A DNA stretch of 64,000 nt, from contig CAXHJY010001589.1 of the NCBI GenBank assembly GCA_964016885.1, positions 1 through 64,000 of the forward strand. Direction: 5' to 3'. The notes under the pieces were generated by a model that did not search any database, had not been told where the DNA came from, and saw only the letters and a list, made by a program, of their open reading frames with translations. A program made the position numbers and the translations under genes. This stretch comes from Eledone cirrhosa (lineage: Eukaryota). Position 1 is the stretch's first letter, and each line of letters starts with the position of its first letter. Below, one piece after another: positions 21,763 through 61,424 of this stretch.

Positions 21763-22338
21763 GTATATATATATATGTATATATATATATGTATATGTAA
21801 GTATGCATGTATACGTACATACATATATGTATACAGACGTACAGTAGCATGCACATATATATATATATATACATATATACATACATATGCATACAGGTAC
21901 ACATACATATATGCACGTATCAGTTTAGCGGCGCTAACGTCGCTTTGTTCGTTTGTAAACAAACTGAACAGCCTGAATTTATGCCATACGGTGTTAAGGC
22001 AACCACGTCACCTTTTTGTTCAACACTGACACAGGAACGATGTACTAGTTTCAAGCTTGTTAGCTATCATCAGCACCGTTTACCCATCTGCCAGATAGTT
22101 GAACGTTCGAAAGTATATACTTTCCTTATGAAAATTAACGGCTGAGCAGCCTAATTTGCATATTGAGTGAGTTAAATCGGTCAGGCATACCGAAAACGAT
22201 AAATTGAAACAAAATGAAAACGAAATTTCATTTCTCACTCTTAGTATGGCACTTACTTAAATGTAAGTATGCATGTATACTTAATTTTCATAAGGAAAGT
22301 ATATACTTTCGAACGTTCAACTATCTGGCAGATGGGTA

Positions 22339-22383
22339 AACGGTGCTGATGATAGCTAACAAGCTTGAAACTAGTACATCGTT
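22339..22383 (+). ncRNA. Type I hammerhead ribozyme (first of 7 direct copies, plus 1 inverted)
   Basis: AACGGTG-CTGATGA-TAGCTAACAAGCTT-GAAA-CTAG-TA-CATCGTT. Predicted cleavage is after A22376. Confidence 0.85.
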
Positions 22384-22723
22384 CCTGTGTCAGTGTTGAA
22401 CAAAAAGGTGACGTGGTTGCCTTAACACCGTATGGCATAAATTCAGGCTGTTCAGTTTGTTTACAAACGAACAAAGCGACGTTAGCGCCGCTAAACTGAT
22501 ACGTGCATATATGTATGTGTACCTGTATGCATATGTATGTATATATGTATATATATATATATATGTGCATGCTACTGTACGTCTGTATACATATATGTAT
22601 GTACGTATACATGCATACTTACATTTAAGTAAGTGCCATACTAAGAGTGAGAAATGAAATTTCGTTTTCATTTTGTTTCAATTTATCGTTTTCGGTATGC
22701 CTGACCGATTTAACTCACTCAAT

Positions 22724-22770
22724 ATGCAAATTAGGCTGCTCAGCCGTTAATTTTCATAAGGAAAGTATAT
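22724..22770 (+). promoter_or_regulatory. Octamer plus PSE-like motif (putative snRNA-type promoter), repeated in the units
   Basis: ATGCAAAT-N16-TAATTTTCATAAGGAAAGTATA. Family B has ATGCAAAT-N15-TAATTTTCATAGAAAAAGCATA. Confidence 0.55.
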
Positions 22771-25483
22771 ACTTTCGAACGTTCAACTATCTGGCAGATG
22801 GGTAAACGGTGCTGATGATAGCTAACAAGCTTGAAACTAGTACATCGTTCCTGTGTCAGTGTTGAACAAAAAGGTGACGTGGTTGCCTTAACACCGTATG
22901 GCATAAATTCAGGCTGTTCAGTTTGTTTACAAACGAACAAAGCGACGTTAGCGCCGCTAAACTGATACGTGCATATATGTATGTGTACCTGTATGCATAT
23001 GTATGTATATATGTATATATATATATATATGTGCATGCTACTGTACGTCTGTATACATATATGTATGTACGTATACATGCATACTTACATTTAAGTAAGT
23101 GCCATACTAAGAGTGAGAAATGAAATTTCGTTTTCATTTTGTTTCAATTTATCGTTTTCGGTATGCCTGACCGATTTAACTCACTCAATATGCAAATTAG
23201 GCTGCTCAGCCGTTAATTTTCATAAGGAAAGTATATACTTTCGAACGTTCAACTATCTGGCAGATGGGTAAACGGTGCTGATGATAGCTAACAAGCTTGA
23301 AACTAGTACATCGTTCCTGTGTCAGTGTTGAACAAAAAGGTGACGTGGTTGCCTTAACACCGTATGGCATAAATTCAGGCTGTTCAGTTTGTTTACAAAC
23401 GAACAAAGCGACGTTAGCGCCGCTAAACTGATACGTGCATATATGTATGTGTACCTGTATGCATATGTATGTATATATGTATATATATATATATATATGT
23501 GCATGCTACTGTACGTCTGTATACATATATGTATGTACGTATACATGCATACTTACATTTAAGTAAGTGCCATACTAAGAGTGAGAAATGAAATTTCGTT
23601 TTCATTTTGTTTCAATTTATCGTTTTCGGTATGCCTGACCGATTTAACTCACTCAATATGCAAATTAGGCTGCTCAGCCGTTAATTTTCATAAGGAAAGT
23701 ATATACTTTCGAACGTTCAACTATCTGGCAGATGGGTAAACGGTGCTGATGATAGCTAACAAGCTTGAAACTAGTACATCGTTCCTGTGTCAGTGTTGAA
23801 CAAAAAGGTGACGTGGTTGCCTTAACACCGTATGGCATAAATTCAGGCTGTTCAGTTTGTTTACAAACGAACAAAGCGACGTTAGCGCCGCTAAACTGAT
23901 ACGTGCATATATGTATGTGTACCTGTATGCATATGTATGTATATATGTATATATATATATATATGTGCATGCTACTGTACGTCTGTATACATATATGTAT
24001 GTACGTATACATGCATACTTACATTTAAGTAAGTGCCATACTAAGAGTGAGAAATGAAATTTCGTTTTCATTTTGTTTCAATTTATCGTTTTCGGTATGC
24101 CTGACCGATTTAACTCACTCAATATGCAAATTAGGCTGCTCAGCCGTTAATTTTCATAAGGAAAGTATATACTTTCGAACGTTCAACTATCTGGCAGATG
24201 GGTAAACGGTGCTGATGATAGCTAACAAGCTTGAAACTAGTACATCGTTCCTGTGTCAGTGTTGAACAAAAAGGTGACGTGGTTGCCTTAACACCGTATG
24301 GCATAAATTCAGGCTGTTCAGTTTGTTTACAAACGAACAAAGCGACGTTAGCGCCGCTAAACTGATACGTGCATATATGTATGTGTACCTGTATGCATAT
24401 GTATGTATATATGTATATATATATATATATGTGCATGCTACTGTACGTCTGTATACATATATGTATGTACGTATACATGCATACTTACATTTAAGTAAGT
24501 GCCATACTAAGAGTGAGAAATGAAATTTCGTTTTCATTTTGTTTCAATTTATCGTTTTCGGTATGCCTGACCGATTTAACTCACTCAATATGCAAATTAG
24601 GCTGCTCAGCCGTTAATTTTCATAAGGAAAGTATATACTTTCGAACGTTCAACTATCTGGCAGATGGGTAAACGGTGCTGATGATAGCTAACAAGCTTGA
24701 AACTAGTACATCGTTCCTGTGTCAGTGTTGAACAAAAAGGTGACGTGGTTGCCTTAACACCGTATGGCATAAATTCAGGCTGTTCAGTTTGTTTACAAAC
24801 GAACAAAGCGACGTTAGCGCCGCTAAACTGATACGTGCATATATGTATGTGTACCTGTATGCATATGTATGTATATATGTATATATATATATATATGTGC
24901 ATGCTACTGTACGTCTGTATACATATATGTATGTACGTATACATGCATACTTACATTTAAGTAAGTGCCATACTAAGAGTGAGAAATGAAATTTCGTTTT
25001 CATTTTGTTTCAATTTATCGTTTTCGGTATGCCTGACCGATTTAACTCACTCAATATGCAAATTAGGCTGCTCAGCCGTTAATTTTCATAAGGAAAGTAT
25101 ATACTTTCGAACGTTCAACTATCTGGCAGATGGGTAAACGGTGCTGATGATAGCTAACAAGCTTGAAACTAGTACATCGTTCCTGTGTCAGTGTTGAACA
25201 AAAAGGTGACGTGGTTGCCTTAACACCGTATGGCATAAATTCAGGCTGTTCAGTTTGTTTACAAACGAATAAAGCGACGTTAGCGCCGCTAAACTGATAC
25301 GTGCATATATGTATGTGTACCTGTATGCATATGTATGTATATATGTATATATATATATATATGTGCATGCTACTGTACGTCTGTATACATATATGTATGT
25401 ACGTATACATGCATACTTACATTTAAGTAAGTGCCATACTAAGAGTGAGAAATGAAATTTCGTTTTCATTTTGTTTCAATTTA

Positions 25484-27037
<1,554 letters not shown>

Positions 27038-29854: not shown

Positions 29855-29890
29855 TGTATATATATGTATATATATATATATGTATATATA

Positions 29891-30904
29891 CAATTAAGTT
29901 AAAAAAATACATCTACATACTGAAATACATATGTAACCGGTTTTTAGATTCATACTGGTTTTTGAGGGAACACCTTCCCTCTATTCTCCAGAAAGCCAGA
30001 CAAGGAATATTGAACTAGTTTCGTTGTTGTTACAACTCATCAGCAATATTTACCTATCTACCGGCCTTTCTGGAGAATTGTAAAAGCACATATTGTTATA
30101 TGCTTTTTCTATGAAAATTAGTAGTGGGCAGACTAATTTGCATAGAGTGTGAGTACGCACCGGTTCAGCGGAGACGATAAAAACAAATAACGAAACGAAA
30201 TTAAATTTCGTTTCGTTTGTAACTCACTTTTGTATGACTGACGCTTAAACAATTAAGTTAAAAAAATACATCTACATATGCATACTGAAATACTAGTGTG
30301 TATATGAATACACACACGTATACATATGTATATGTAACAAGTCTTTCACTGGTTGCTTTACTGTGAGCACCCAGCTATTCTGTATGTAAACACACAGACA
30401 AACCGGTTTTTAGAGTCATACTGGTTTTTGAGGGAACACCTTCCCTCTATTCTCCAGAAAGCCAGACAAGGAATATTGAACTAGTTTCGTTGTTGTTACA
30501 ACTCATCAGCAATATTTACCTATCTACCGGCCTTTCTGGAGAATTGTAAAAGCACATATAGTTATATGCTTTTTCTATGAAAATTAGTAGTGGGCAGACT
30601 AATTTGCATAGAGTGTGAGTACGCACCGGTTCAGCGGAGACGATAAAAACAAATAACGAAACGAAATTAAATTTCGTTTCGTTTGTAACTCACTTTTGTA
30701 TGACTGACGCTTAAACAATTAAGTTAAAAAAATACATCTACATATGCATACTGAAATACTAGTGTGTATATGAATACACACACGTATACATATGTATATG
30801 TAACAAGTCTTTCACTGGTTGCTTTACTGTGAGCACCCAGCTATTCTGTATGTAAACACACAGACAAACCGGTTTTTAGAGTCATACTCGTTTTTGAGTC
30901 ATAC
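29891..30904 (-). mobile_element. Retrozyme-like tandem array, family B (466-bp unit, ~2.4 copies)
   Basis: Unit starts at 29891 (internally deleted), 30250 and 30716. Hammerheads AATATTG-CTGATGA-GTTGTAACAACAAC-GAAA-CTAG-TT-CAATATT at 30006-30050 and 30472-30516. Octamers at 30136 and 30602. Confidence 0.88.
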
Positions 30905-31638
30905 TTGTTATGAGTTGCGATTTAGATTTTTGAATGGGACGGATAGCACGAGGCCCAAGCCTTGGGTGTATATTGAAGGCGATGCCAACATCATTTGGGC
31001 AGTGATGATGGCACATTTTCCACATCATGCAGATAATATAACGCTCACGGCGACGTTGGAGTGAGTAAAGTTTCAGGTTTTCTAGTCGACCCCAGTATTC
31101 AAGGTCTGACATGCCATCTATCTTTTTCGTGATTGCCCTTTGAGGAGCTTCAAGTTTCATGATACTTTGTTTCGTGTGGGGAGACCACAGTGGACAACAG
31201 TATTCAAGGTGTGGTCGGGCAAAAGTAGAGAAGAGAAGGATAATGGTGTGGGAATCTCTCGACTGGAAGGTTCTGAGGATCCAGGAACACATTCTGCGGG
31301 CCATGTCAATTTTGCTGCTTATATTCGTGGCCCAGCTGATGTTGCTGTCCACGGTTACTCCCGAGTCTCTGATGTTGTTAGATGCCACGAGAGTTTCCCC
31401 GGAGGGAAGGGAGTACGGGAGTTTCAGAGCACCCACTTTTCCAAAGTGGATCAGTTCGAATTTGTCTTCGTTCAGTAACATGTTGTTCTTTTCCGCCCAT
31501 TGGGTAACAGCCAGTAGGTCTGACTGAAGGCTTATCCGGTCATCCACGCCATTGATGACCTTTTGGAGATTGGAATCATCAGCGAAATATTTTAATGTTG
31601 CTGTGTTTGATGATGTCAGTGATGTCATTAATATAGAT
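30905..31638 (-). mobile_element. CR1-group LINE family 1 fragment lacking its 3' end
   Basis: Duplicate of 14061-14794, joined directly to the family B array. Confidence 0.9.
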
Positions 31639-31779
31639 GTATATACTTATATATATATGTATATACTTATATATACATATATATGTATATACATGTATAT
31701 ACATATATATATATATATATGTATATATATGTATATACATATATATATGTATATACATATATATATATATGTATATACT

Positions 31780-31826
<47 letters not shown>

Positions 31827-32105
31827 GTATATACTTATATATACATATATATATATATGTATATACATATATATATATGTATATACTTATATATACATAT
31901 ATATATTTATGTATATACATATATACATATATATATATATATGTATATACATATATATATATATGTATATACTTATATATATATATATATGTATATACTT
32001 ATATATACATATATATATATATGTATATACATATATATATATATGTATATATATATATATGTATATACATATATATACATACATATATATACATATATAT
32101 ACATG

Positions 32106-32193
<88 letters not shown>

Positions 32194-32196
<3 letters not shown>

Positions 32197-33585
32197 CAAT
32201 GTCCAGTAGTGCTAAGTTTAATATTATGATCGCAGTTTTGGTACGAGTGAAGAAGAATGTGTCCCGAATGTGCGACCCAACAGAAATGGAAAGACACATC
32301 CAACACTTCATCAACCGTATGCAGTTCTCTGGCTACAACCAAAGAGACAGAGTGAGAGTATACGAAGGAGCCATGGAGAAGTATAAGACCCTCATAGAAC
32401 TGGACATGAAAGGAATTTTCCCATTATACAGAAGCAAATCATGGAATAGCTTAGATAGGGCTAGACATAAGATAGAGAAAGCCACCGCATGGTACGACAA
32501 CCAGAGATACCAGAGTGTCATGTTTGTGGACGCTACCCCTGGAGGGAAATTAGCTAACCAGTGTAGAAAGGCCCTGAGAAAGACCCACTTAAAGATTAAG
32601 GTGGTAGAAAAGCCAGGAACCACCATAAAATCCCTGATCAGCAAAACCTACCCTTTTAAGAAAACCCACTTTACTAATAGGAAATGTATCATATGTAAGG
32701 TAAACCCTCGGATTAACTGTAAAACTAGAAACGTAGTCTATAGCATAAGATGTACAGAGGGTACTTGCAGAAACATGACAACAACATACATAGGCGAGAC
32801 AGCTCGTAGCATAGGTGAAAGGATAGACCAATACTGGGGGGAACCTAAAGGACGAAAATACGGATCAGTACTATACGAACATGCCAGACAACATAACGAC
32901 GGTAATATAGACAACATAAAAATTAGAATAATATCTAAACATAGAAATGACCCAGCAGACAGGCAAATCAGAGAGGCCAGTGAAATAGTAATTAGAAGGC
33001 CAAGGCAAAACAGAAAGAATGAATGGAATAACAACAACACCCAAACAAACAACACTGACCTAAGAGAAGTATAAATAAATAAATAAATAAATAAATAGAT
33101 AAATAAATAAATAATACATACACAAGCAGAATAACAACAAACACATATAAACACACACTAGTAACGATAGAATACATTAACCAATACACAGTCACCCAAT
33201 CACGAACACACATCAAACACTATACACACACGCAAACACATGCGCAAAGAAGACAAAATAAAATGAACAAATAAATAAATATATACATACGGACTAAATA
33301 AAGATGGCGTAGAAAATAGAATGTAACGGGAGGAAACAATAGCACCACTGATGATGTTGCAGATGTGCAACGAAAGAACTTTGATGAACTATATATATGT
33401 GTTTGTGTCTATATTGTATCTGTATTATTTTTGACCGTTGGTCAGTCAATGGCAACATTGAGGACCGAATATATTAGATTACCGATATAAAAGACACAGA
33501 AGCGAAAAGCGAAAAGCAACCAAACAATAAGTGTGTTCTGTTACTAATTCTGGCAATATTACGAAAATATGACCCTCCCAAGTAT

Positions 33586-33591
<6 letters not shown>
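32194..33591 (+). mobile_element. PLE family 2 3' fragment (duplicate), hammerhead at 33343-33386
   Basis: Near-identical to 15360-16757. The ORF reads through the codon that is a stop in copy 1. Confidence 0.88.
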
Positions 33592-33683
<92 letters not shown>

Positions 33684-36585: not shown

Positions 36586-36886
36586 GGTTATACTTTGGGA
36601 GGGTCATGTTTCCAATAAGAAACACACGCACCAGTAGCATTCACTTCAATTTATTATATATTTATAAATTTATGAATTTACAAATCTACAAATTTATAAA
36701 TTTCTGGTTGGTTGGTTGGTTCCACAACCAGATAGTTGTTTATATATAGTCATAGTCCTTGGTTGTGGAACCAACCAACCAACCAACCAGAAATTTATAA
36801 ATTTGTAGATTTGTAAATTTATAAATTTATAAATATATAATAAATTGAAGTGAAAGCAACTGGTGTGTGTGTTTCTTATTGGCAAC

Positions 36887-39800
36887 AGGACCCTCCCAAA
36901 GTATAACAATATCCGTTTCAACACACGATTTCAGATAAAGAATCTTACTAAACAAATTCAGAAACGAAATATCGTAAGCCTTAGCCAGGCTAACAAGATA
37001 CTGAAAACCACCATGTTCTGTTGTCTACGAAAAAGCATAACATCTCGACAACTATACTTCATAAAGCTGTGTTCCTCGTCCAGAATCTACACCAACACCA
37101 TCAATACTAACGTTAGAAGATTACAACTCACCAAAAAACAAGCAGATAGGCTAAAACGAACATTAATTCTAAACATAAAAAAGAAAATCTATAGAGAATT
37201 AAGTCATCAAGAAAAACAAAAGCGTAACCTAATACAAGAAATAGCTAGGATCACCACACCAAGAGAGAAACTAATATTTATAAGCCTTATACGCCCTGAA
37301 GAACAGTACATTACTCAAGAATGTGATAAGCACTTTAAGAGGAAACTAAAGTGGCTTAAAAAGGCAAAGCTAAATCAGGATACTATAGAGTATACCAATA
37401 GATATCCCGACAAAATTGACGGTATCAACATGGCCGACACCTCATTATCAGAAGAGTTCAACAACAAAAAACACCAACATATATGGGAACGCAAAAATAC
37501 ATAATGATGAAATGTCTGTGTTATGTTTGCCGCCGAAATTTGAGACATTCAAGAAGGTAAATATGATTAGTTGTCTGTCAGAAATAGAAAATTCATTTAC
37601 AAAACTACGCTGGAGCATCAAAAACAAAAGCAACAATATACGCACACACATATACAACACACATCCCAACAACAACAGACACACAGACACAAACAACAAT
37701 AACAACAACACACACATCAACATCAACAATAACAACATACCCAGAAACAACAACAACAGACACGCAGACACAAACAACAATAACAACACACACAACAACG
37801 ATAACACACACGGAGACAACAACAACACACATCAACAACAGCACACATCAACAACAACAACACACACGCATTCAATGCCTCTCACCACCACCACAATCTT
37901 AACAAACACACAGACACAGAAAACAAGTAATGACAGTAGCACAGAAATCACAGAAATAAGGGAAAGTAATAGGATTAAAAGGAGAAGGGAGACTAAGGAC
38001 AAAGAGAATAACCAAGACGAACACACAGACACACAAAATAGGGTAGATAACAACATTGAGCCAGTGGAAAGAGACAGGAGTAATTATGAGAGACATAGAA
38101 ACAACCATGATGCTGTTGGTGGAAATAGAAATAGAAACTACACAACTAACAATAACAATAGCACTAGTACACATAAAGCAGCAGCCTGGAACTCTCCGTT
38201 TTATAATCCCTCCGATAAATCATTCGACCTGCGACGAGTCCACGCCACGACTTTACCATTTAACAAACGCACGCAGTTGCCGTCGCAAGTCGATGAACAA
38301 ACAGAAGCACAATTTAGTATAGCTAGATCCGAACTTAGAAATATTATAGAACAGTATAGCAAGAAGCATAATAGAATGGAGGCCCAGCAACTGGGAGAAA
38401 AATCTGCAAATGGCTTGCGTAAGCTCATGCAGCGCTCACGTAATGGAGAGATAGCATGCTTTCCAACAGACAAGTCTGGCAGAATGTCGGTTGACAGCCT
38501 GCCAAACTACATCCAGGCAATGCAACCCCACATCACTAACACAAGAGAGGTAACACCACAGGAGCATGAGGATAGAGAAAAAGCCCTCAATGCCCATATG
38601 GTGATGTGGACGAATATAATGCAGCCCAACAAAAGGACTGCCAACAACTTCCAGGCCTAGAACAATGACGTGCCGGCGTTGTATGGGCTTCGAAAAGACC
38701 ATAAAACGGGCTGTGACCCTGTCGCGGGACCACCAGCACGGCCAATCTGTGGAGCTAACATTGCTAGTAACTACAGACTGTCCTATTTCCTCTCCCTGAT
38801 TCATACGCCCCATCATTGAGATGTCCCCAGATGTATGTGACAGCACGGAGGACCTCCTCAGCGGAATCGGCGTGAGTAACCGATCTGGGGACCTAACAAA
38901 CTGCATAATAGGCAGTATGGATGTTGTGTCCCTGTATCCATCTATTGACGTGGATTTTGCTGTGGAGAAATGCGTAGAAATGATCAGCGAGAGCAAGGTT
39001 GAGTTCCGTGGGATTGATACCAGTGAGCTGGGACTTCTACTTAAGCTTACCCATAGTAATAGTTACCTAGACACATATGACCTTAGCAACCTGTGCCCTA
39101 CAAGACCAGCAAGAGGCAGACCACCTACCATTACCTCAACGGCCAAGAAAACCCACACAGAAAGATCGAACGGGTGGACCAGAGCCATACGGACACCCGA
39201 AAACCACGATGAACTGAAGAAAATGATTGCACATGCGGTAGGGGCCAGCATAAAATTAACCCTTAAGGAACATATGTTCAAATTTAATGGAAAAACATAT
39301 GCCCAAGAGGAAGGAGCAGCCATTGGTGTTAGCATTGCAGGCGACATAGCTAACTTATTCATGGTATGGTGGGACAGTAGACTTAAACTTAAACTTAAAG
39401 AACAATTAGAAGACAGCTTAACCCTGATAATGTACTCCCGCCACGTAGATGATATAAACATCGTAATTAAGACACCCCCACTAGAGAACAGTCAGGAACT
39501 AGAGAAAAACACAATGGAAAGCATCCAGCAAATAGCAAACTCCATCCACCAGAGCATTAGAGTTACTATAGACTACCCAAGTAGACATCCCAACCATCGA
39601 TTACCTGTACTAGACACAGAGCTCTGGTTAGATACGATTAATAACCAAAAACAAATCCTCCATTCCCATTATGCCAAACCCATGACTTCCAAACATCTGA
39701 TCCACCGAAACTCGGCCATTTCGGACCATACCAAAATCAACATACTGATTGCGGATTTGGTACGGGTGATGAGAAATGTGTCCCGCATGTGCAACCCCGA

Positions 39801-40590
39801 AGAACTAGAGAGACACATACAACACTTCATCCACCTCCACCGTATGCAGTTCTCTGGCTACAATCAGAGAGATAGAATCAGAGTGTATAGAGGAGCCAGA
39901 ACCAAATGGGAAAAAATGGTAAATAATGACATAAATGGGACCTGCCCCTTGTATAGGAGCAAATTTTGGAATAGAATAGAAAGAACTAGGAACAAGGCCA
40001 ATAGAATAAACTCATGGTATGATAGCAATAAATACCAGAGTGTAATGTTCATCGATACAACCCCTAGAGGCGAACTAGCCTACACATTTAGAAGGGCCCT
40101 AAATAAACATAAACTCAATATTAAGATAGTAGAAAGACCAGGTACCTCCGTAAAAACACTTATTAGCAAGACATACCCGTTCCAAAGACCCTCATGTATA
40201 GATAAGAAATGTATAACCTGTAAAATAAGCCCCCATATTAACTGTAAAACTGGAAATGTAGTGTATAGCATAAGATGTACTGAAGGACAATGTAGAAACA
40301 AAAATATAGTGTACATAGGTGAGACAGCTCGTAGTATAGGGGAACGGATAAATGAACACTGGCGAGACCTTCAAGATAATAAAGAATCATCTGTACTCTA
40401 CCAACATGCTAAGATAGAACACAAGGGTAAATTAGAGAACAGAAATAAAAATAGAATCTACACACAGAAAAGACGCAATGTTTAGACAAATTACAGAGGC
40501 AATAAACATAAAAGAATTACAACCAAAATTAAATAGAAAATATGAGTGGAACAGCAACATCACAAATTACAATAAAGGACAAAATGAAAA
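36887..40590 (+). pseudogene. PLE RT/GIY-YIG ORF, copy 1 (disrupted)
   Basis: TDKSG, LRKDHK, DVVSLYPSID, RHVDD and YIGET motifs. The start codon is mutated, and there are frameshifts and a TAG at 38658. Confidence 0.85.
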
Positions 40591-40778
40591 CACACACACA
40601 CATAAAACAAACAACCAACCAATAACATGTAAATAAATAAACAAATAGATAAATGAACACAAACACACAGACACCCGGATGTGGCGCATGCGCAAACTGA
40701 GCACACAACACACACACAGAAACAAGATGTCGTAGGACAGAAGAAAGGAAAGGCACAGAAACAAAGAAAGGAATCCCC

Positions 40779-40823
40779 AGTCACTGAAGAGGTCACAGAG
40801 TGTGTGACGAAAGGACTATGACT
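40779..40823 (+). ncRNA. Minimal type I hammerhead in the pLTR (second copy at 44853-44897)
   Basis: AGTCA-CTGAAGA-GGTCACAGAGTGTGTGAC-GAAA-GGAC-TA-TGACT. Confidence 0.85.
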
Positions 40824-40963
40824 ATATATAAACAACTATCTGGTTTTGGAACCAACCAACCAACCAGAAATTTATAAATTTGTAGATTTGTAAATTTATA
40901 AATTTATAAATATATAATAAATTGAAGTGAAAGCAACTGGTGCGTGTGTTTCTTATTGGCAAC

Positions 40964-43900
40964 ATGACCCTCCCAAAGTATAACAATATCGGTTTCAACA
41001 CACGATTTCAGATAAAGAATCTTGCTAAACAAATTCAGAAACGAAATATCGTAAGCCTTAGCCAGGCTAACAAGATACTGAAAACCACCATGTTCTGTTG
41101 TTTACGAAAAACCATAACATCTCGACAACTATACTTCATAAAGCAGTGTGCCTCGTCCAGAATCTACACCAACACCATCAATACCGACGTTAGAAGATTA
41201 CAACTCACCAAAAAACAAGCAGATAGGCTAAAACGAACATTAATTCTAAACATAAAAAAGAAGATCTATAGAGAATTAAGTCATCAAGAAAAACAAAAGC
41301 GTAACCTAATACAAGAAATAGCTAGGATCACCACACCAAGAGAGAAACTAATATTTATAAGCCTTATACGCCCTGAAGAACAGTACATTACTCAAGAATG
41401 TGATAAGCACTTTAAGAGGAAACTAAAGTGGCTTAAACAGGCAAAGCTAAATCAGGATACTATAGAGTATACCAATAGATATCCCGACAAAATTGACGGT
41501 ATCAACATGGCCGACACCTCATTATCAGAAGAGTTCAACAACAAAAACACCAACATATATGGGAACGCAAAAATACATAATGATGAAATGTCTGTGTTAT
41601 GTTTGCCGCCGAAATTTGAGACATTCAAGAAGGTAAATATGATTAGTTGTCTGTCAGAAATAGAAAATTCATTTACAAAACTACGCTGGAGCATCAAAAA
41701 CAAAAGCAACAATATACGCACACACATATACAACACACATCCCAACAACAACAGACACACAGACACAAACAACAATAACAACAACACACACATCAACAAC
41801 AACAATAACAACATACCCAGAAACAACAACAACAGACACGCAGACACAAACAACAATAACAACACACACAACAACGATAACACACACGGAGACAACAACA
41901 ACACACATCAACAACAGCACACATCAACAACAACAACACACACGCATTCAATGCCTCTCACCACCACCACAATCTTAACAAACACACAGACACAGAAAAC
42001 AAGTAATGACAGTAGCACAGAAATCACAGAAATAAGGGAAAATAATAGGATTAAAAGGAGAAGGGAGACTAAGGACAAAGAGAATAACCAAGACGAACAC
42101 ACAGACACACAAAATAGGGTAGATAACAACATTGAGCCAGTGGAAAGAGACAGGAGTAATTATGAGAGACATAGAAACAACCATGATGCTGTTGGTGGAA
42201 ATAGAAATAGAAACAACACAACTAACAATAACAATAGCACTAGTACACATAAAGCAGCAGCCTGGAACTCTCCGTTTATAATCCCTCCGATATATCATTC
42301 GACCTGCGACGAGTCCACGCCACGACTTTACCATTTAACAAACGCACGCAGTTGCCGTCGCAGGTCGATGAACAAACAGAAGCACAATTTAGTATAGCTA
42401 GATCCGAACTTAGAAATATTATAGAACAGTATAGCAAGAAGCATAATAGAATGGAGGCCCAGCAACAGGGAGAAAAATCTGCAAATGGCTTGCGTAAGCT
42501 CATACAGCGCTCACGTAATGGAGAGATAGCATGCTTTCCAACAGACAAGTCTGGCAGAATGTCGGTTGACAGCCTGCCAAACTACATCCAGGCAATGCAA
42601 CCCCACATCACTAACACAAGAGAGGTAACACCACAGGAGCATGAGGATAGAGAAAAAGCCCTCAATGCCCATATGGTGATGTGGACGAATATAATGCAGC
42701 CCAACAAAAGGACTGCCAACAACTTCCAGGCCTAGAACAATGACGTGCCGGCGTTGTATGGGCTTCGAAAAGACCATAAAACGGGCTGTGACCCTGTCGC
42801 GGGACCACCAGCACGGCCAATCTGTGGAGCTAACATTGCTAGTAACTACAGACTGTCCTATTTCCTCTCCCTGATTCATACGCCCCATCATTGAGATGTC
42901 CCCAGATGTATGTGACAGCACGGAGGACCTCCTCAGCAGAATCGGCGTGAGTAACCGATCTGGGGACCTAACAAACTGCATAATAGGCAGTATGGATGTT
43001 GTGTCCCTGTATCCATCTATTGACGTGGATTTTGCTGTGGAGAAATGCGTAGAAATGATCAGCGAGAGCAAGGTTGAGTTCGGTGGGATTGATACCAGTG
43101 AGCTGGGACTTCTACTTAAGCTTACCCATAGTAATAGTTACCTAGACACATATGACCTTAGCAACCTGTGCCCTACAAGACCAGCAAGAGGCAGACCACC
43201 TACCATTACCTCAACGGCCAAGGAAACCCACACAGAAAGATGGAAGGGGTTTACCAGAGCCATACGGACACCCGAAAACCACGATGAACTGAAGAAAATG
43301 ATTGCACATGCGGTAGGGGCCAGCATAAAATTAACCCTTAAGGAACATATGTTCAAATTTAATGGAAAAACATATGCCCAAGAGGAAGGAGCAGCCATTG
43401 GTGTTAGCATTGCAGGCGACATAGCTAACTTATTCATGGTATGGTGGGACAGTAGACTTAAACTTAAACTTAAAGAACAATTAGAAGACAGCTTAACCCT
43501 GATAATGTACTCCCGCTACGTAGATGATATAAACATCGTAATTAAGACACCCCCACTAGAGAACAGTCAGGAACTAGAGAAAAACACAATGGAAAGCATC
43601 CAGCAAATAGCAAACTCCATCCACCAGAGCATTAGAGTTACTATAGACTACCCAAGTAGACATCCCAACCATCGATTACCTGTACTAGACACAGAGCTCT
43701 GGTTAGATACGATTAATAACCAAAAACAAATCCTCCATTTCCATTATGCCAAACCCATGACTTCCAAACATCTGATCCACCGAAACTCGGCCATTTCGGA
43801 CCATACCAAAATCAACATACTGATTGCGGATTTGGTACGGGTGATGAGAAATGTGTCCCGCATGTGCAACCCCGAAGAACTAGAGAGACACATACAACAC

Positions 43901-44701
43901 TTCATCCACCTCCACCGTATGCAGTTCTCTGGCTACAATCAGAGAGATAGAATCAGATTGTATAGAGGAGCCAGAACCAAATGGGAAAAAATGGTAAATA
44001 ATGACATAAATGGGACCTGCCCCTTGTATAGGAGCAAATTTTGGAATAGAATAGAAAGAACTAGGAACAAGGCCAATAGAATAAACTCATGGTATGATAG
44101 CAATAAATACCAGAGTGTAATGTTCATCGATATAACCCCTAGAGGCGAACTAGCCTACAAATTTAGAAGGGCCCTAAATAAACATAAACTCAATATTAAG
44201 ATAGTAGAAAGACCAGGTACCTCCGTAAAAACACTTATTAGCAAGACATACCCGTTCCAAAGACCCTCATGTATAGATAAGAAATGTATAACCTGTAACA
44301 TAAGCCCCCATATTAACTGTAAAACTGGAAATGTAATGTATAGCATAAGATGTACTGAAGGACAATGTAGAAACAAAAATATAGTGTACATAGGTGAGAC
44401 AGCTCGTAGTATAGGGGATCGGATAAATGAACACTGGCGACACCTTCAACATAATAAAGAATCATCTGTACTCTACCAACATGCTAAGATAGAACACAAG
44501 GGTAAATTAGAGAACATAGAAATAAAAATAGAATCTACACACAGAAAAGATGCAATGTTTAGACAAATTACAGAGGCAATAAACATAAAAGAATTACAAC
44601 CAAAATTAAATAGGAAAAATGATGGAACAGCAACATCACAACTTAAAATTAAGGACAAAATGAAAACACACACACACATAAAACAAACAACCAACCAATA
44701 A
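40964..44701 (+). pseudogene. PLE RT/GIY-YIG ORF, copy 2 (disrupted)
   Basis: MTLPKYNN start and RYVDD motif. Frameshift near 42278, TAG at 42733, frameshift near 42878. Confidence 0.85.
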
Positions 44702-45159
44702 CATGTAAATAAACAAATAAATAAATGAACATAAACACAGACAGACACCCGGATGTGGCGCATGCGCAGACTGTGCACACAACACACACACAGAAACAAA
44801 GTGGCGTAGGACAGAAGAAAGGAAAGGCACAGAAACAAAGAAATGAATCCCCAGTCACTGAAGAGGTCACAGAGTGTGTGACGAAAGGACTATGACTATA
44901 TTTAAACAACTATCTGGTTGTGGAACCAACCAACCAACCAGAAATTTATAAATTTGTAGATTTGTAAATTTATAAATTTATAAATATATAATAAATTGAA
45001 GTGAAGGCATGGGGTGCGTGTGTTTCTTATTGGCAACATGACCCTCCCAAAGTATAACAACATCGGTTTCAACACACGATTTCAGATAAAGAATCTTGCT
45101 AAATAAATTAAGAAACGAAATATATATATATGCATATATATATATATATATGTATATGC

Positions 45160-45190: not shown

Positions 45191-46877
45191 ATATATTTAG
45201 AAACACACAGATACATGCGGACACACACATATACATGAATGCATCCGCACCCAACCATGAGTTAAGGGTGCCAACTTCACCGATGTTGCTCAATGAATGA
45301 CTGGGACAGACCAATCCGGTTGAACCAGACTGAACCAGTATCAGAGTTAAAAATACATTATGAAGAGAGAAGAAACATTTAGATATAATTAGTAATAAAA
45401 TGTATCATACCTAAACTGCTCCTAGATTCCTCGACTACGTAGTTTCGTGGCATAAACAAAAACAATATATCATAAAGATATAGAGTCCTTGCGAGGTCTG
45501 CCGACTTATCAAGAGGATACCTCATTTTACTAGTCTCAAGAACGCGTCTCCACAACGTGAGAAAGAATCCCAAAAGGCGGAGGGGGAGATAGTCACGCGA
45601 TATAACGGTCGAGAAACAGAGCTAAGCCTCTTATAACCCCGAAGAAAATACCACGGAGGCGGAGGGGGTATTTATATCGAAGCCGTAGAAGAGGTGGTGA
45701 AGGAGGCGAGAAGTATGAGTAATGAAAGCTTTCCAGCAGTCCCCACACTTCAAAGATTGCTCGACCAGAGGGAGTTATTAACAATATATTTAGAAACACA
45801 CAGATACATGCGGACACACACATATACATGAATGCATCCGCACCCAACCATGAGTTAAGGGTGCCAACTTCACCGATGTTGCTCAATGAATGACTGGGAC
45901 AGACCAATCCGGTTGAACCAGACTGAACCAGTATCAGAGTTAAAAATACATTATGAAGAGAGAAGAAACATTTAGATATAATTAGTAATAAAATGTATCA
46001 TACCTAAACTGCTCCTAGATTCCTCGACTACGTAGTTTCGTGGCATAAACAAAAACAATATATCATAAAGATATAGAGTCCTCGCGAGGTCTGCCGACTT
46101 ATCAAGAGGATACCTCATTTTACTAGTCTCAAGAACGCGTCTCCACAACGTGAGAAAGAATCCCAAAAGGCGGAGGGGGAGATAGTCACGCGATATAACG
46201 GTCGAGAAACAGCGCTAAGCTTCTTATAACCCCGAAGAAAATACCACGGAGGCGGAGGGGGTATTTATATCGAAGCCGTAGAAGAGGTGGTGAAGGAGGC
46301 GAGAAGTATGAGTAATGAAAGCTTTCCAGCAGTCCCCACACTTCAAAGATTGCTCGACCAGAGGGAGTTATTAACAATATATTTAGAAACACACAGATAC
46401 ATGCGGACACACACATATACATGAATGCATCCGCACCCAACCATGAGTTAAGGGTGCCAACTTCACCGATGTTGCTCAATGAATGACTGGGACAGACCAA
46501 TCCGGTTGAACCAGACTGAACCAGTATCAGAGTTAAAAATACATTATGAAGAGAGAAGAAACATTTAGATATAATTAGTAATAAAATGTATCATACCTAA
46601 ACTTAGGCTTAGCTCTGTTTCTCGACCGTTATATCGCGTGACTATCTCCCCCTCCGCCTTTTGGGATTCTTTCTCACGTTGTGGAGACGCGTTCTTGAGA
46701 CTAGTAAAATGAGGTATCCTCTTGATAAGTCGGCAGACCTCGCAAGGACTCTATATCTTTATGATATATTGTTTTTGTTTATGCCACGAAACTACGTAGT
46801 CGAGGAATCTAGGAGCAGTTTAGGTATGATACATTTTATTACTAATTATATCTAAATGTTTCTTCTCTCTTCATAAT

Positions 46878-46878
<1 letters not shown>
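45190..46878 (-). mobile_element. Retrozyme-like tandem array, family C (593-bp unit, ~2.4 copies) plus inverted 5' segment
   Basis: Unit starts at ~45190, 45783 and 46376. 46604-46878 is inverted. Variant hammerheads at 45428-45517, 46021-46110 and 46717-46806. Confidence 0.85.
46717..46806 (+). ncRNA. Type I hammerhead with U3-A8 core variant
   Basis: TCCTC-TTGATAA-GT(C)GGCA...TGCCAC-GAAA-CTACGTAG-TC-GAGGA, with a GUC triplet. Confidence 0.75.
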
Positions 46879-46915
<37 letters not shown>

Positions 46916-47582: not shown

Positions 47583-47890
47583 AAAATAAAGTTAAATAAA
47601 AGTCAAATGATTAAAATTTAGCTTCGTTTATTACTGCTATATATATTTCAGTGACAGCCATCTTTGTCATATGACTCCAGTTCCCCAGTGAATTAACAAC
47701 CCAGCAAGGAACTGGGCATATCAGAGTATTGACAATATCATACACCTAAACAACATATGTACTTGTCTATACCATACTAATTCAAACTGCCTGAAGAGGT
47801 CACAGCCAAAGATGGCTGTCACTGAAATATATATAGCAGTAATAAACGAAGCTAAATTTTAATCATTTGACTTTTATTTAACTTTATTTT
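47583..47890 (+). mobile_element. Short PLE-type pLTR fragment with hammerhead (47786-47840) and inverted 5' copy
   Basis: ACTGC-CTGAAGA-GGTCACAGCC..GGCTGTCACT-GAAA-TATATA-TA-GCAGT-AATAAA. 47583-47665 is the reverse complement of 47808-47890. Confidence 0.82.
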
Positions 47891-48934: not shown

Positions 48935-49514
48935 AATTAAGTTAAAAATGTACATCCACATATGTATACTGAAATACTAGTATGCATATGAATACACACA
49001 CGTATACATATGTAGATGTACCGAGTTTTTCACTGGTCACTTTACTGTGAGTGTCCAGCTATTCTGTATGTAAACACACAGACAAACCGGTTTTTAGAGT
49101 CATACTGGTTTTTGAGGAAACACCTTTCCTCTATTCTCCAGAAAGCCAGACAAGGAATATTGAACTAGTTTCGATGTTGTTACATCTCATCAGCAATATT
49201 TACCTATCTTCCGGCCTCTCTAGAGAATCGTAAAAGCACATATCGTTATATGCTTTTTCTATGAAAATTAGTAGTGGGCAGACTAATTTGCATAGAGCGT
49301 GTTTACATACAGAATAGCTGGACACTCACAGTAAAGTGACCAGTGAAAAACTCGGTACATCTACATATGTATACGTGTGTGTATTCATATGCATACTAGT
49401 ATTTCAGTATACATATGTGGATGTACATTTTTAACTTAATTGTTTAAGCGTCAGTCATACAAAAGTGAGTTACAAACGAAACGAAATTTAATTTCGTTTC
49501 GTTATTTGTTTTTA
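48935..49514 (-). mobile_element. Family B retrozyme-like copy with inverted 5' segment
   Basis: Hammerhead at 49156-49200, octamer at 49286-49293, and 49299-49514 inverted. Confidence 0.85.
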
Positions 49515-50341
<827 letters not shown>

Positions 50342-52330
50342 ACGCTTTGGCGTACTTGTGTTTGCTATTCCTAATATTAGGTTTCCTTATGGACATGTTG
50401 TGCGAGATGATGTTGTAGCTATGTGTTTTCTTAGGTAGGAACTCAATTTCTATATTATGGCCGGATCTAGCTAATGCTTGATTATAATATTGTGAGTTTT
50501 TGCTAAATATGTTTGCGTCATAGGATAGATTAGAGATTCTATTGGATACCCCCTTAGAGATAGAGTTTAATATTGATCTAGGGTGATTAGACTTGGTATC
50601 TACGTAAATGATTTTTTCGTTAGGCTTATGGAAAGGTGTATATATTTTTGAGTCTAGGTATAGTGTGGAGTCTAGGAAGTTAACATTTTTAGTGTTTTTT
50701 GTGCATGGTGATACTAAGGTTAAAGTTTTTGAATGTCTTGTGCAATAGTTTTCTAGTTCTTTCTATATTTAATTTTCTATAAGTAGAAGTGCATCATCGC
50801 GGTACAAACCACCGTTGAGGTAAGGGAGGTCCTTATGGATTTCATTGAGAAGGTATAGGCCGACCAAATCAGTGACCTGCGCCGAGTCACTAGATCCCAC
50901 GGTTATGTCGAAGTTGTTGTGTGTATCCTTGCGTGTTCATAGTTGGTCCTCGAAGGTGATTATGGTTTTACGGGCCGCAAGGATGACATCAATCTGTGCT
51001 CTAGTCAGGTCGCTATTGTTCATGGCCATGATTAGTGCCTTATTTAATAGGATAGGGGAAATAGAGGTGTAGTATTAATTGATATCAAATTGAATAAATT
51101 TTTTGTCCTTATTATTCTTGATATCTTTGAACCATTCAATAACTTCACCCGTATTTCCCAATTGTTTAAGGTGTATCTTGTGTTTAATTTGTGGGATGAT
51201 TTTATCTAAAATTTTCTTGCTGATAATACCAATGTCGGACTTGTAAGGGCAGATAAGTCTTATCGAGGGGTTGCTGATGAAGTCCTTCTTATGATCCTTC
51301 AGAGAGAATCTAGGGGATTTTGGGGTGAATGGTTGTGTATGCCTCTGAAGTCCTAGTTTAGACACTATATTATATCCCTCTATATTAATATCTTCTAAGT
51401 TTTTCAAGGTGGTCTTCTTGTAGCTTTTATGTAGTTCATTATATATAAACTTTCTATAAGTATTATAATCTAGGCTGTATATGTTATTAGTTTTATCTGC
51501 GTGTACAATAATTTTATTACTAGTTTTGAATCCGTTAATAGAGGTGTTAAGTTTGTTTAAGAAGGTGCTGCTTCTATTATGGTGCTTATTGTATTTAATG
51601 TTCTTAACTAGTTTAACTAGATCATTTTCAAAGAAGTTAAGTAGTGTGTTATGAGGGGGGCTTTTAAAGGTTTTAAAGCCGAAGGAGTCAAATTTGTTAG
51701 TATTATTCACATTGTTAGATCTGTTTCTATCATAATGGAATGTCCTCCATCTCACTCTATTGATAAATGAATTTACACTGTTGATCAGCAATTTCTCATA
51801 TGTATTCCTGGATGGTATTGGTATGTTCTTGGTTGACATGGGGAGTTGGTCTTTGATTAGCATATTGGTAATATTATATGTCAGCTCAACAATATGGAGC
51901 AGTTAATAGTATTAATTATACTATTTATGGTTATGTAAATACGAAAACCTTTTGCAGTTATATATATTTTTATATACAAACCCTAAATAGTGGGAGGAAG
52001 TAATATATTACTACCTTATTACCAGTAAGTTAAGTAGCTCAATGTAAAAACATCAGATGATTTACAGAGCAGTTATATGAAATATAAGAATCAAAGAACT
52101 GTTCAAAACATGTTTATGCTTACAACTGTTTCCTCCAAACCGAGGTTTGGATTCTTCGGAGCAATTTATTAATGAATGAACACTTATATGACCTCCTTTT
52201 CACCCAAGAGACATACAGATACATATGCAAATATTGTGGGTCAACATTCATTACAGCATTTAGAGTGGCAGTACACACTTAGAGATTACATTCATATTAA
52301 AAGATACAATCAAAAATACAGGTTAAAATA
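50342..52330 (-). mobile_element. Naiad-like PLE: 5' pLTR plus RT, endonuclease absent
   Basis: KNIPIPS, ADKTNN, LKDHK, FDI, GLYRDD, VNFLD and SNHP motifs with premature stops. Variant hammerhead at 52117-52163. The element may extend to ~53585. Confidence 0.82.
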
Positions 52331-53585: not shown

Positions 53586-54422
<837 letters not shown>

Positions 54423-55403: not shown

Positions 55404-56899
55404 TAAAGGAGGTAGTAGAGCGGAGGCCAAGAACTATAGGCCAGTTTCCCTGACGACGCATATCAGTAAGGTCATGGAGCGAGTCGTCAGAAAGAAACTA
55501 ATCACTTTCCTCGAAGAAAATGACCGTCTGACTAGCACGCAACATGGCTTCCGCCCAGGAAGAAGTTGCCTTACACAGCTGCTACATCACTACGACTGGG
55601 TACTGAGACAACTACTAGACAGCTCACATGTGGACGTGATATATCTTGACTTTGCGAAGGCCTTTGACAAGGTCGACCACGGAATGATATGTCACACACT
55701 ACACGGACTAGGCATAATTGGAAAAGTAGGTGAGTGGCTGCATGGCTTCCTAACGGACAGAAGCCAGGCAGTCGCAGTAAATGGGGCCCTCTCGAAGGAA
55801 ACACCGATAACAAGTGGGGTGCCCCAGGGGACAGTCCTGGGACCACTACTGTTTTTGGTGGCTCTCTCGGACATGCCCTCTGTGGTGCATGCAACAACAT
55901 CTCTCACTAGCTATGCTGATGACACTAAGGTAGCACAGGCAATCAAAAACCCGGCTGACGCTGCTCTTTTACAGCAGAATCTGGATGCCATATACAGATG
56001 GGCGGAAGAAAACAACATGCAGTTTAATGTTGGCAAATTCCAAGCCCTACAATACAAACCTACAAACACAAATATAGTGGAACACAGCTACACAGGACCA
56101 GGAGGGACCGATATCCCCGTGTCAAAATCGATACGAGACCTGGGCATAGACATGAGCGATGATGCATCTTTTTCTTCACACATCATGAAGGTGGCGACAA
56201 CATGTAGACGATTCGCTGGCTGGATCTTGAGGACTTTCCTTACAAGAGATCGACCCACCATGTTGACACTGTGGAGGACTTTTGTTCTAAGCCGCCTGGA
56301 CTACTGCTCCCAGCTGTGGTCACCCCATAGTGTCAAACTAACCACGGAGATTGAGGCAATCCAGCGAAGCTACACCAAGAGGATTGCCAAGATGAGGGAG
56401 ACAAGCTACTGGGAGAGGCTAAAGGAACTGAACCTCTACTCCTTGGAGCGAAGACGGGAGAGATACGCAGTGATCTACATGTGGAAAATCCTGGAGGGAC
56501 TAGCACCGAACTTTGGCATTGGGAGCTGGACCAACCGTCGAAGAGGACGTCACTGTGTGGTGCCAAAGATCCCGTCTTCCACATCTAGAATAAGGAGCAG
56601 GTATTGCAATAGCCTGGGATTCAAGGGTCCTCAACTCTTCAACAGGCTGCCGAGGCATCTGAGAGACTTGCATGACGTGGAGGTGGATGTCTTTAAGAAA
56701 CATCTCGACACCTTGTTATCCAGGATCCCGGATGAGCCCACAGCAAGACACGAGGGAAACCTAAGGGCAGCAGCAACAAACTCCCTCCTACACCAGTGGC
56801 CAACCTATACAGGCTGGAGATAAAACGTGTAGCAACAAGGGCGGTGCACCAGCATGGCCTCAGCCGGATGGCTGAAACAGGTAAAAGAGTAAAAGAGTA
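55404..56899 (+). mobile_element. CR1-group LINE family 2, 5'-truncated, RT uninterrupted
   Basis: YLDFAKAFD, GVPQG and YADD motifs. Same 3' UTR and tail as 27038-29854. Confidence 0.92.
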
Positions 56900-59242: not shown

Positions 59243-61178
59243 TTATTAGTAATAATAATAAAATTGAAGACTAAAACCCAAAGAGGGCTGGATAAGGAAA
59301 ATGTATATCAAATATATAAGAACCGTAGAGCAAATATTTATTAAAATAGCAGATTAAAGTTTAAGCAAAGAATCGCTGCTTTCACCCTTAACGGGATCTT
59401 CTGAAACTAACAAAGTCAATCTGTAAACGCAGAACTGGATATTTCAAAAAACGTTGCAACCGGAGGAAGACAGGAAGACGATACTTTGGTTCGTGGTAAC
59501 GTTCGCTGGCAAAGAACGGGAAAAAACGAATAATACGTCATTAATAGGAGCGGTGAAAAACAATTACGCGCAAAGACAAAACCACGTTTATGGTATAAAA
59601 GAGGTCGTAGACTAATGTTCTCTTAGGTGGTTCTCTGACAATGAACGGAAAAACGAAGATAATAAGTCATATGTGGAGCGTGGAGAACAATTACCTAGCC
59701 GTAGGAACACGTGCAACCCTGTAGTTAGTACTAACTGTAATTGTAGGAATCGGGCTGATTGCCCCCTATCCGGGAAATGCCTCTCTAGTAACATTGTCTA
59801 CAAATGTAAGGTTGTAACACCCACGTCCCGTAGCGCCTACATAGGGTTAACCGCCAATAGTTTCAAGCAGCGTCTTTACATGCATACCCATTCTTTTCGT
59901 TACCCTCTAAGAAGGAATATGACGTCACTTTCAGCTTATATCTGGAGTCTAAAAGACAACCACACCCAATATAAGTTACACTGGGAGATCCTAGCTAGGG
60001 CTAGATCGTATAACGGAAATAAAAGACCATGTGACCTCTGCGCCGCTGAGGCCCTGGAAATACTCTACGCCACAGACCACATCTTAAACAAAAAATCTGA
60101 GGCAATTTCGGCTTGTAAACATAATTTGCACAAAACTTTCCTGTATTACAGCCCCACGTTATAACCTAACGGATAGCACGATCTATACGTGGATATTTTA
60201 CGTCTTGATGTGGGAGCTAAGTATATGTTTTGTTTATTCCTTTACTTATTTGCATAGGTAAGTATATATTAGCCGTATGTTGTGTGAAGGTATGTATACC
60301 TTCTCGTACGTATATTTGACTGTTATGGCGTATAATTTTTACATATTCTGGTATTTAGAGTTTGGCTATGTGTATACGGGAGTTTTGCGTCCGCGTGAGT
60401 ATGCAGGTTCGTATGTATGGTGGGTGTGTGTATATGTGTACTTCTTGTTTTAGTTGACTTACGTCTCCGAACATTCGTGTATTTATATGTAGATATGCGT
60501 GTGCGCTTGTTATATACGTATTTATTTACTTATATACGTTTATATAATTATTTATTTATTTGTACACAAGCATACACACACACACATATTTATATGTGCG
60601 TGGTTTTGTATACCTATGGTAAGGTTTTGCGTATGCTTGTGTATGTACGTATTTGTTTGCGTGTATGTATTTATTTGTTTCTATTACTTCTGTATCGTAT
60701 TTATTTACTTTGTTCTTAACTCTGTAGCGGAGATTCATTTGGTCTCCTAGTTAGAATTTTAGTTTACGATTTCTGCTATACCATTTACGTGGTTTTGTCT
60801 TTGCGTGCTATTGTTCTCCACACTCCACATATGACTTATTATCTTCGTTTTTTCGTTCATTGCCAGAGAACGTCTCTATGCACCACCTAAGAGAACATTA
60901 GTCTACGACCTCTTTTATACCATAAACGTGGTTTTGTCTTTGCGCGTAATTGTTTTTCACCGCTCAAATTAATGACGTATTATTCGTTTTTTCCCGTTCT
61001 TTGCCAGCGAACGTTACCACGAACCAAAGTATCATCTTCCTGTCTTCCTCCGGTTGCAACGCTTTTTGAAATATCCAGTTCTGCGTTTACAGATTGACTT
61101 TGTTAGTTTCAGAAGATCCCGTTAAGGGTGAAAGCAGCGATTCTTTGCTTAAACTTTAATCTGTTATTTTAATAAATA
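59243..61178 (+). mobile_element. Naiad-like PLE 3' fragment with inverted 5' pLTR
   Basis: ~59334-59690 is the reverse complement of ~60810-61178, and these repeats enclose a GIY-YIG ORF. Confidence 0.85.
59691..60164 (+). pseudogene. Naiad-type GIY-YIG endonuclease domain (5'-truncated)
   Basis: CNCRNRADCPLSGKC linker, IVY...YIG, FKQR, LSAYIW, CDLC, LNKKSE and CKH motifs. Confidence 0.85.
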
Positions 61179-61424
61179 TATATATATGTATATATATTTC
61201 ATTATTTCTGAATACGGCATATATATGTGTTGGTATGTATATTTAATTTTGATAGTTTGTATAATTTTATATAATTTTGTACATAGATCTGTTGAATATG
61301 CATGCCAATTCTAACACATATATATCCTAGAAACGATCGTTAAATAATGAACTTTTTTTGTTTAATATAAGGAACTGTTTCATTGTTTTATTCATTATTT
61401 TTTTAATATTTTTTTTAATATTTT

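Follow-up and report, generated by a model that had tools for sequence, protein, structure and literature searches.

Two subfamilies of a 466-nt hammerhead retrozyme, probably mobilised by a Penelope-like element

Repeat families A and B of the window (the whole 64,000-nucleotide stretch of DNA analysed) are best read as two subfamilies of one non-autonomous non-LTR retrozyme, moved in trans by the protein of a Penelope-like element (PLE), a reading to which we assign a probability of about 0.75. As judged from sequence, both are tandem arrays of 466-nt units, in which the type I hammerhead is intact, and are inserted into (TA)n with fixed internal ends and inverted 5′ arms; a PLE is probably responsible for mobilising them. 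The original prediction of a family of elements in place of a passive satellite is upheld by three dispersed loci with shared ends and by their conserved structure.

Tandem-repeat analysis of the window locates family B at 29935–30898 on the minus strand (period 466, 2.1 copies) and family A at 22281–25484 on the plus strand (period 466, 6.9 copies), confirming the common period, with one of the six spacings in the A array measuring 468 nt. CTGATGA, GAAACTAGT, ATGCAAAT and TAATTTTCATA are common to both families, as had been claimed. The two are homologous and align end to end (global score 168, against −57 ± 14 for 100 shuffles), so that the ‘strong divergence’ ascribed to B amounts to 67–71% identity over ungapped columns of the whole unit, with 17–28 indels depending on the gap setting. 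The spacing, described as nearly the same, is so from the octamer to the PSE-like motif (24 versus 23) but not from the latter to the ribozyme core (64 versus 77, a shift of 13 nt). The two B copies differ at 3 sites over 29935–30432, and a third locus, B2 (48935–49515), found by BLAST within the window, is ~93% identical to B with 25 differing sites. The units have a GC content of 0.36, and no ORF of 120 aa lies inside B. Counting unit positions (A and B numbering) from the base after the predicted cleavage site, the loci are as follows.

29935..30898, minus strand: family B dimer (unit positions 47–466, 1–466 and 1–78)
29890..29934, minus strand: deleted remnant of a further B unit, ending at B230 into (TA)n, a short 3′ end
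48935..49301, minus strand: B2 arm with hammerhead (B328–466, 1–228), ending at B228 into (TA)n
49299..49515, plus strand: B2 inverted arm (B86–302), ending at B302 into a TA-rich microsatellite
22281..25484, plus strand: family A array, ending at A310 into (TA)n
21795..22280, minus strand: inverted arm of the A locus (A229–466, 1–248), ending at A248 into (TA)n
1..32, plus strand: family A fragment (A274–305) followed by (TA)n, found by BLAST

The window holds many (TA)n arrays, with LINE and Penelope-like fragments between them. A 2735-nt block comprising a LINE fragment, a TA array and a PLE 3′ fragment is present twice at 99.0% identity (30904–33626 and 14061–16793). In the copy at 30904–33626, family B replaces the LINE 3′ end and the junction has a 6-nt duplication, both of which suggest that the junction arose by template switch. 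A supposed third 466-bp family at 55450/55916 was rejected, as it lies in a LINE ORF.

All arms of A, B and B2 run out into a TA-rich microsatellite, and they do so at only two positions, which are homologous between the families. Exact junctions place the long 3′ end at A310 (25484) and B302 (49515), and the short 3′ end at A248 (21795), B228 (48935) and B230 (29890). The A and B2 loci each have two outward-pointing arms, one finishing at the short end and the other at the long end, and the two ends are separated by 62 nt in A and 74 nt in B2; of the three full loci, these two have an inverted 5′ arm and both ends, and B has the short end only. Among the loose ends listed from read contigs, the B302–(TA)n junction occurs in 12 contigs of run X1 and 1 of run X6, and the short end, present at the three window loci, does not occur. 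Between the two recurrent ends lies a segment that we term the tail.

30643..30716, minus strand: tail segment (B229–302), with a 13-bp hairpin

Owing to the lack of any B2 difference over B215–302 (P = 0.004, post hoc) and to the single listed read variant there (B220), the tail is a candidate recognition site for reverse transcriptase. In PLEs, reverse transcription is described as beginning within the RNA, at two sites, on AT-rich DNA that has been nicked, and the tail arising from this two-site start is termed ‘unique to PLEs’ (PMC11167929); inverted arms with a tail, microsatellite targets and tails of 30–40 bp are reported for PLEs in 10.1101/2021.04.23.441226. Two internal 3′ ends, an inverted 5′ arm and an AT-rich target, the features of a PLE-type insertion, are all present here. 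Counting against a PLE helper, the tails of A and B2 (62–74 nt) are longer than the PLE tails described. Elsewhere in the window, a tandem repeat at 45191–46880 (period 593, ~2.4 copies, 99.6% identity) has an inverted 276-nt arm followed by (TA)n; it contains no CTGANGA core on either strand, and may be a second non-autonomous element with a similar insertion style.

An example of the candidate helper type is found in the same window.

36586..45121, plus strand: tandem Penelope-like element with reverse transcriptase (RT) and GIY-YIG-type end, ORFs interrupted

Its two units, spaced ~4075 nt apart, are nearly identical and contain stops and frameshifts; the element has an inverted 5′ arm and a 60-nt tail in the layout seen at A and B2. 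The tail is bounded 169 and 229 nt after the presumed cleavage site, and both ends of the tandem recur in a mini-insertion near 54325–54367. Minimal-hammerhead-like motifs at 40784 and 44858 were read by eye and missed by the descriptor. The protein matches RVT_1 with an E-value of 3e-4, below the cut-off, and has atlas neighbours at 0.93–0.98, several of them with RT, HTH_animal and GIY-YIG. Autonomous-type PLEs and the putative retrozyme are thus found beside one another in one genome. Comparison of A and B with the window PLE ends and pLTRs (6 stretches) gave only low-complexity matches; above-shuffle scores against PLE ends and the 593-bp repeat came from TA-rich stretches and were discarded.

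The N-terminal part of the 36586–45121 element contains an Asn/Thr-rich low-complexity insert. A second PLE family, with a minimal hammerhead-like motif at 16514 and 33348, has a 3′ end resembling the short end of the first. Fragments at 50343–51902 and 59246–61180 look by eye like pieces of a different PLE-type family; they include a GIY-YIG-like ORF at 59616–60164, accompanied by an inverted copy of its left flank, and gave no Pfam match.

The type I hammerhead of A and B is formed by CUGAUGA, a stem II with AACA loop, GAAA and a helix III that is the palindrome ACUAGU; short palindromic helices III are typical of metazoan hammerheads working as dimers (PMC4209133). A complete core (CUGANGA, GAAA, UH and stems I–III) is present in 8 A copies, 2 B copies and 1 B2 copy. 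In keeping with the definition applied by Li et al. (2026, 10.64898/2026.07.22.740005), two or more units follow one another in tandem and every one of them carries a complete type I hammerhead; the units also share with non-LTR retrozymes the traits of being non-coding, having a GC content under 50% and adopting a stable self-paired fold.

30479..30516, minus strand: hammerhead of the upstream B copy, stem I 5′ arm to GUU, predicted cleavage after 30479
30013..30050, minus strand: hammerhead of the downstream B copy, predicted cleavage after 30013
30449..30544, minus strand: stem I and distal extension, upstream B copy

Against Rfam Hammerhead_HH9, B scored 38.6 bits (E = 1.8e-8, 376-nt search) and A 18.5 bits (E = 0.049), neither reaching the gathering score of 52, and no family attained its gathering score in a Rfam scan of the whole window. 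When 376 nt of B and 341 nt of A were searched against Rfam by E-value, no second ribozyme turned up on the antisense strand. Cleavage is predicted at GUU in B (H17 = U) and at GUA in A, which also has a U–U mismatch at the base of stem II; U is described as excluded at the position of the B site (PMC1636495). Because of the GUU of B and the U–U pair of A, cleavage may be slow. A GUC variant occurs in one loose end of run X6. Among Xenopus retrozyme dimers, 8 of 9 tested are reported not to cleave in vitro (10.64898/2026.07.22.740005). A hammerhead pattern search of viral contigs gave 108 matches, and none among 114 loci passed the stem I/II filter. Within the window, 47791–47850 contains an isolated motif resembling a type I hammerhead, in which helix III is a TA palindrome and stem I has 5 pairs, and a weak descriptor match at 3347 (minus strand) is possibly due to chance.

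Comparison of the families reveals that the RNA structure has been conserved well beyond the ribozyme. The predicted compensatory swap in stem I (AACGGTG/CATCGTT versus AATATTG/CAATATT) is present, with double-sided changes in 3 of 7 pairs. The distal extension had been thought to be rebuilt in B; CTCCAGAAAG and CTTTCTGGAG do pair with each other in B, but in a hand registration the inner 7 pairs match those of A (4 invariant, 3 double-sided), and the B helix is longer. Hand registration, which is biased towards structure, yielded 63 pairs between A and B, of which 43 are invariant, 18 double-sided, 1 single-sided and 1 broken. The helix segments covered numbered 11, none of them in helix III or the octamer hairpin; the TA-rich hairpin and an ambiguous stretch of stem I were excluded. 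Covariation in support of the ribozyme is therefore real and, with 18 of 63 pairs changed on both sides across the unit, wider than had been claimed. Within stems I–III, 6 pairs changed on both sides, a count equalled or exceeded in 2 of 500 shuffles and compared with 0–1 in slid controls, which is descriptive only, since three of the 4 rows are closely related.

A blind test used the fold of one family and a sequence-only alignment at three gap settings, with the TA hairpin excluded. From A to B, it found 14–15 double-sided changes against 3.3–4.4 expected (0 of 5000 simulations), and from B to A 10–12 against 4.2–5.2 (P = 0.004–0.023); the 19–32 pairs broken per comparison count against a conserved fold. 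The B2 locus provides an independent test, since the fold was derived from B alone. Its 25 differences from B comprise 10 at unpaired positions, 8 in 4 compensating pairs, 6 that keep G–U pairing and 1 that breaks a pair, the breaks numbering 1 against 9.3 expected (0 of 20000 under the null). All 6 single-sided changes involve G–U on the hammerhead strand (P = 0.016), a bias that points to a single-stranded nucleic acid of that strand. Read contigs from 4 runs, placed on one unit, vary at 25 places (13 unpaired, 9 compatible and 3 breaking, against 6.2 under the null, P = 0.036). B444 is listed as a pair break, and its compensating partner is present in B2 and absent from the read-variant list; pair G36–C45 of the B locus is A–U in ~97% of the depth of run X1. 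Circular minimum free energies have z-scores of −8.8 (A) and −9.5 (B) with 40 shuffles each, and −5.4 and −7.7 on the antisense strand. The blind test, the B2 comparison and the hand registration bear out the proposed selection on RNA structure and show, at the level of sequence comparison, that the hammerhead strand has kept a branched fold.

This fold pairs across the unit junction and is kept around the whole unit, which argues against another origin, namely descent of A and B from an autonomous Penelope family outside the window, as pLTRs or 3′ fragments that became detached and were amplified locally as a satellite without circular RNA. We regard this as unlikely, albeit worth serious thought, given the pLTR-like layout (hammerhead, 170–310 nt, two ends) and the report that 24 of 57 Xenopus retrozyme families match known transposable elements at their termini, nearly all of them PLEs (10.64898/2026.07.22.740005). 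The hammerhead is, however, canonical with an extended stem I, and not of the minimal PLE type (PMC4209133), and ORF sequence is attached at none of the three loci.

The original prediction also proposed a promoter composed of an octamer and a PSE-like motif. These motifs, ATGCAAATTA and TAATTTTCAT, pair with each other as opposite arms of a single hairpin, in which A and B have a C–U mismatch in common.

30574..30612, minus strand: octamer hairpin, upstream copy (octamer arm 30602–30609 pairing with ‘PSE-like’ arm 30576–30586)
30108..30146, minus strand: octamer hairpin, downstream B copy

Pair probabilities in the circular ensembles are 0.77–1.0, and local z-scores are −5.0 in B and −1.7 in A. 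Between A and B, 10 of the 11 hairpin pairs are invariant, 1 has a single-sided change and none is double-sided; being invariant, these columns yield no covariation, and the covariation support claimed for the promoter falls away. Whether the octamer is better conserved than its flanks has a divided answer: among 37-column windows, the one at the hairpin is the most conserved between A and B (30/37, rank 1 at four gap settings), but the scan-wide P is 0.06–0.32. Its proportion of changed pairs does not differ significantly from that of the other helices (1/11 versus 20/63, Fisher P = 0.12). With the motifs forming one hairpin and the scan at this level, selection on a promoter is not substantiated. 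The simplest view of the hairpin is that of an RNA element to which a protein possibly binds.

That the hairpin is additionally a DNA promoter of the Pol II snRNA type, a compact octamer plus PSE carried along since the units are tandem, we consider rather doubtful. A perfect octamer occurs in A, B and B2 (chance per shuffled unit 0.03), its hairpin ranks first in conservation as noted above, and B332–384 has no B2 difference (P = 0.04, region picked post hoc), all of which favour it. The ‘PSE’, however, is the reverse complement of the octamer arm, mirrors it and is therefore not independent evidence of a promoter; the 13-nt shift relative to the ribozyme also weighs against this reading, as does a rare variant (0.75% of depth in run X1) that alters the octamer and keeps the pair as G–U. 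Pol III terminates at runs of four or more T, and the four T-runs of at least 4 in each unit oppose read-through in a Pol III form. Precedents are the Pol II promoter of snRNA type in newt satellite 2 (a secondary statement in PMC2220036) and the compact DSE–PSE layout of human RPPH1, set against the usual DSE at −250 to −170 (both PMC9652321). Aligned on ATT, the ‘PSE’ departs from the insect invariants T5, C6 and C8 at position 6, where it has T; all 101 Pol II and all 23 Pol III insect promoters are reported to have C there (PMC1761439), in a consensus that may not be that of the host. The octamer-hairpin pattern had 6 matches in metagenome contigs, none with a downstream core or BLAST similarity. 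A sigma-70 promoter scan was set aside as irrelevant to an animal genome.

For unit length, the predicted selection has weak backing and a loose size constraint is possible. The equal length of A and B despite 17–28 indels, noticed post hoc, has P = 0.025–0.047 under a sign-flip null, under which a net change of 4 nt or less has P = 0.12–0.24; homologous segments differ in length by −23 to +10 nt, and length variants comprise one 468-nt A unit and a 6-nt insertion in 3 contigs of run X1.

A viroid-like RNA circle that does not derive from a local pLTR and structurally mimics the two-site priming module of a Penelope protein, its best-conserved hairpin doubling in the DNA as an internal octamer promoter in parallel with newt satellite 2, is an improbable variant of the scheme. 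Also improbable is mobilisation by a LINE with inversions produced by twin priming. LINE fragments are abundant in the window and also end in (TA)n, and the B 5′ end adjoins one at 30904; by contrast, two fixed internal ends with a one-sided tail fit PLEs, to which they are called unique (PMC11167929), and no 3′ sequence is shared with LINEs among the BLAST matches listed. A passive satellite whose palindromes reflect DNA secondary structure or slippage is scarcely credible: the antisense strand folds well too and the unit contains a TA-rich microsatellite hairpin, but the hammerhead core is intact on one strand, the double-sided changes and G–U bias fall on that strand, and the dispersed loci share ends.

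In other sequencing data, run X1 has a summed depth of 2–7 × 10^5 over most of the unit and 940 contigs, suggesting a very abundant family, on an uncalibrated depth scale. Run X6 has 36 contigs at depth 128–589, a signal that may come from a relative or from carry-over. In runs X5 and X7, B is found at a depth of about 3–30, with one 34-nt match at 73. Their loose ends lie at GANTC/GATC-like sites, which we read as library junctions, and two other runs of the X5 organism contain 0.00 of words; for these reasons neither run was counted as cross-species spread. Word shares in runs of twelve other organisms are 0.18–0.30. No RNA run was listed among those containing the sequence, and miRNA matches in the window scan were microsatellite artefacts.

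In the retrozyme reading, by analogy with known retrozymes (PMC7229834), multimeric transcripts would self-cleave as hammerhead dimers via the palindromic helix III, and the monomers may then circularise. A Penelope-like RT/GIY-YIG protein acting in trans would, as in PLE biology, nick AT-rich DNA, reverse transcription would be primed at two internal sites (A248/B228–230 and A310/B302), and this two-site priming would write the tandem and inverted copies.

The element class is already known. Like the animal non-LTR retrozymes described by Cervera and de la Peña (2020, PMC7229834) and Li et al. (2026), A and B form tandem non-coding units with a type I hammerhead each, a GC content of 36%, a strongly self-paired circular fold and PLEs in the same genome. 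Their 466 nt fall within the 51–972 bp range of Li et al. and exceed the 170–400-nt circles of Cervera and de la Peña. Compared with such elements as described there, A and B have defined ends (two fixed sites, an inverted arm and a (TA)n target) and no homology found to the window pLTRs; ‘inverted’ occurs 0 times in the main text of PMC7229834 and once, in a reference title, in that of Li et al.

Newt and axolotl satellite 2 (HHR_Amex1 type) is similar by its description. The type has one stable helix III pair, a palindromic tetraloop cap and expected dimer action (PMC7229834), and A and B likewise have a palindromic helix III, expected dimers and a possible octamer; they differ in length (466 versus ~330 nt) and in their promoter, experimentally reported in newt and putative here. 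The Dolichopoda pDo500 satellite (PMC2837043), likewise a hammerhead satellite of an invertebrate, has compensatory changes within its stems I and II, whereas in A and B compensation reaches well outside the ribozyme. As in PLEs (pLTR and tail; PAc of Anolis, PMC11167929), two internal ends lie downstream of the hammerhead at an AT-rich target, and the loci have partial tandems and an inverted 5′ arm; unlike PLEs, A and B lack an ORF, their hammerhead is canonical and not minimal, and the tail is 62–74 nt long versus 30–40.

PLEs have been named ‘a strong candidate’ for mobilising animal non-LTR retrozymes (PMC7229834), and mobilisation mechanisms are listed as future work by Li et al. A literature search, mainly of the main texts of open-access papers, listed no description of a retrozyme with an octamer or a PLE tail. 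The A and B loci combine a PLE tail signature, priming sites predicted at base level and two subfamilies near a PLE with a similar tail and target. The helper hypothesis can thereby be put directly to the test in the PLE in vitro assay already published (PMC11167929). What the loci most usefully add to the known class is a retrozyme that bears the PLE tail signature.
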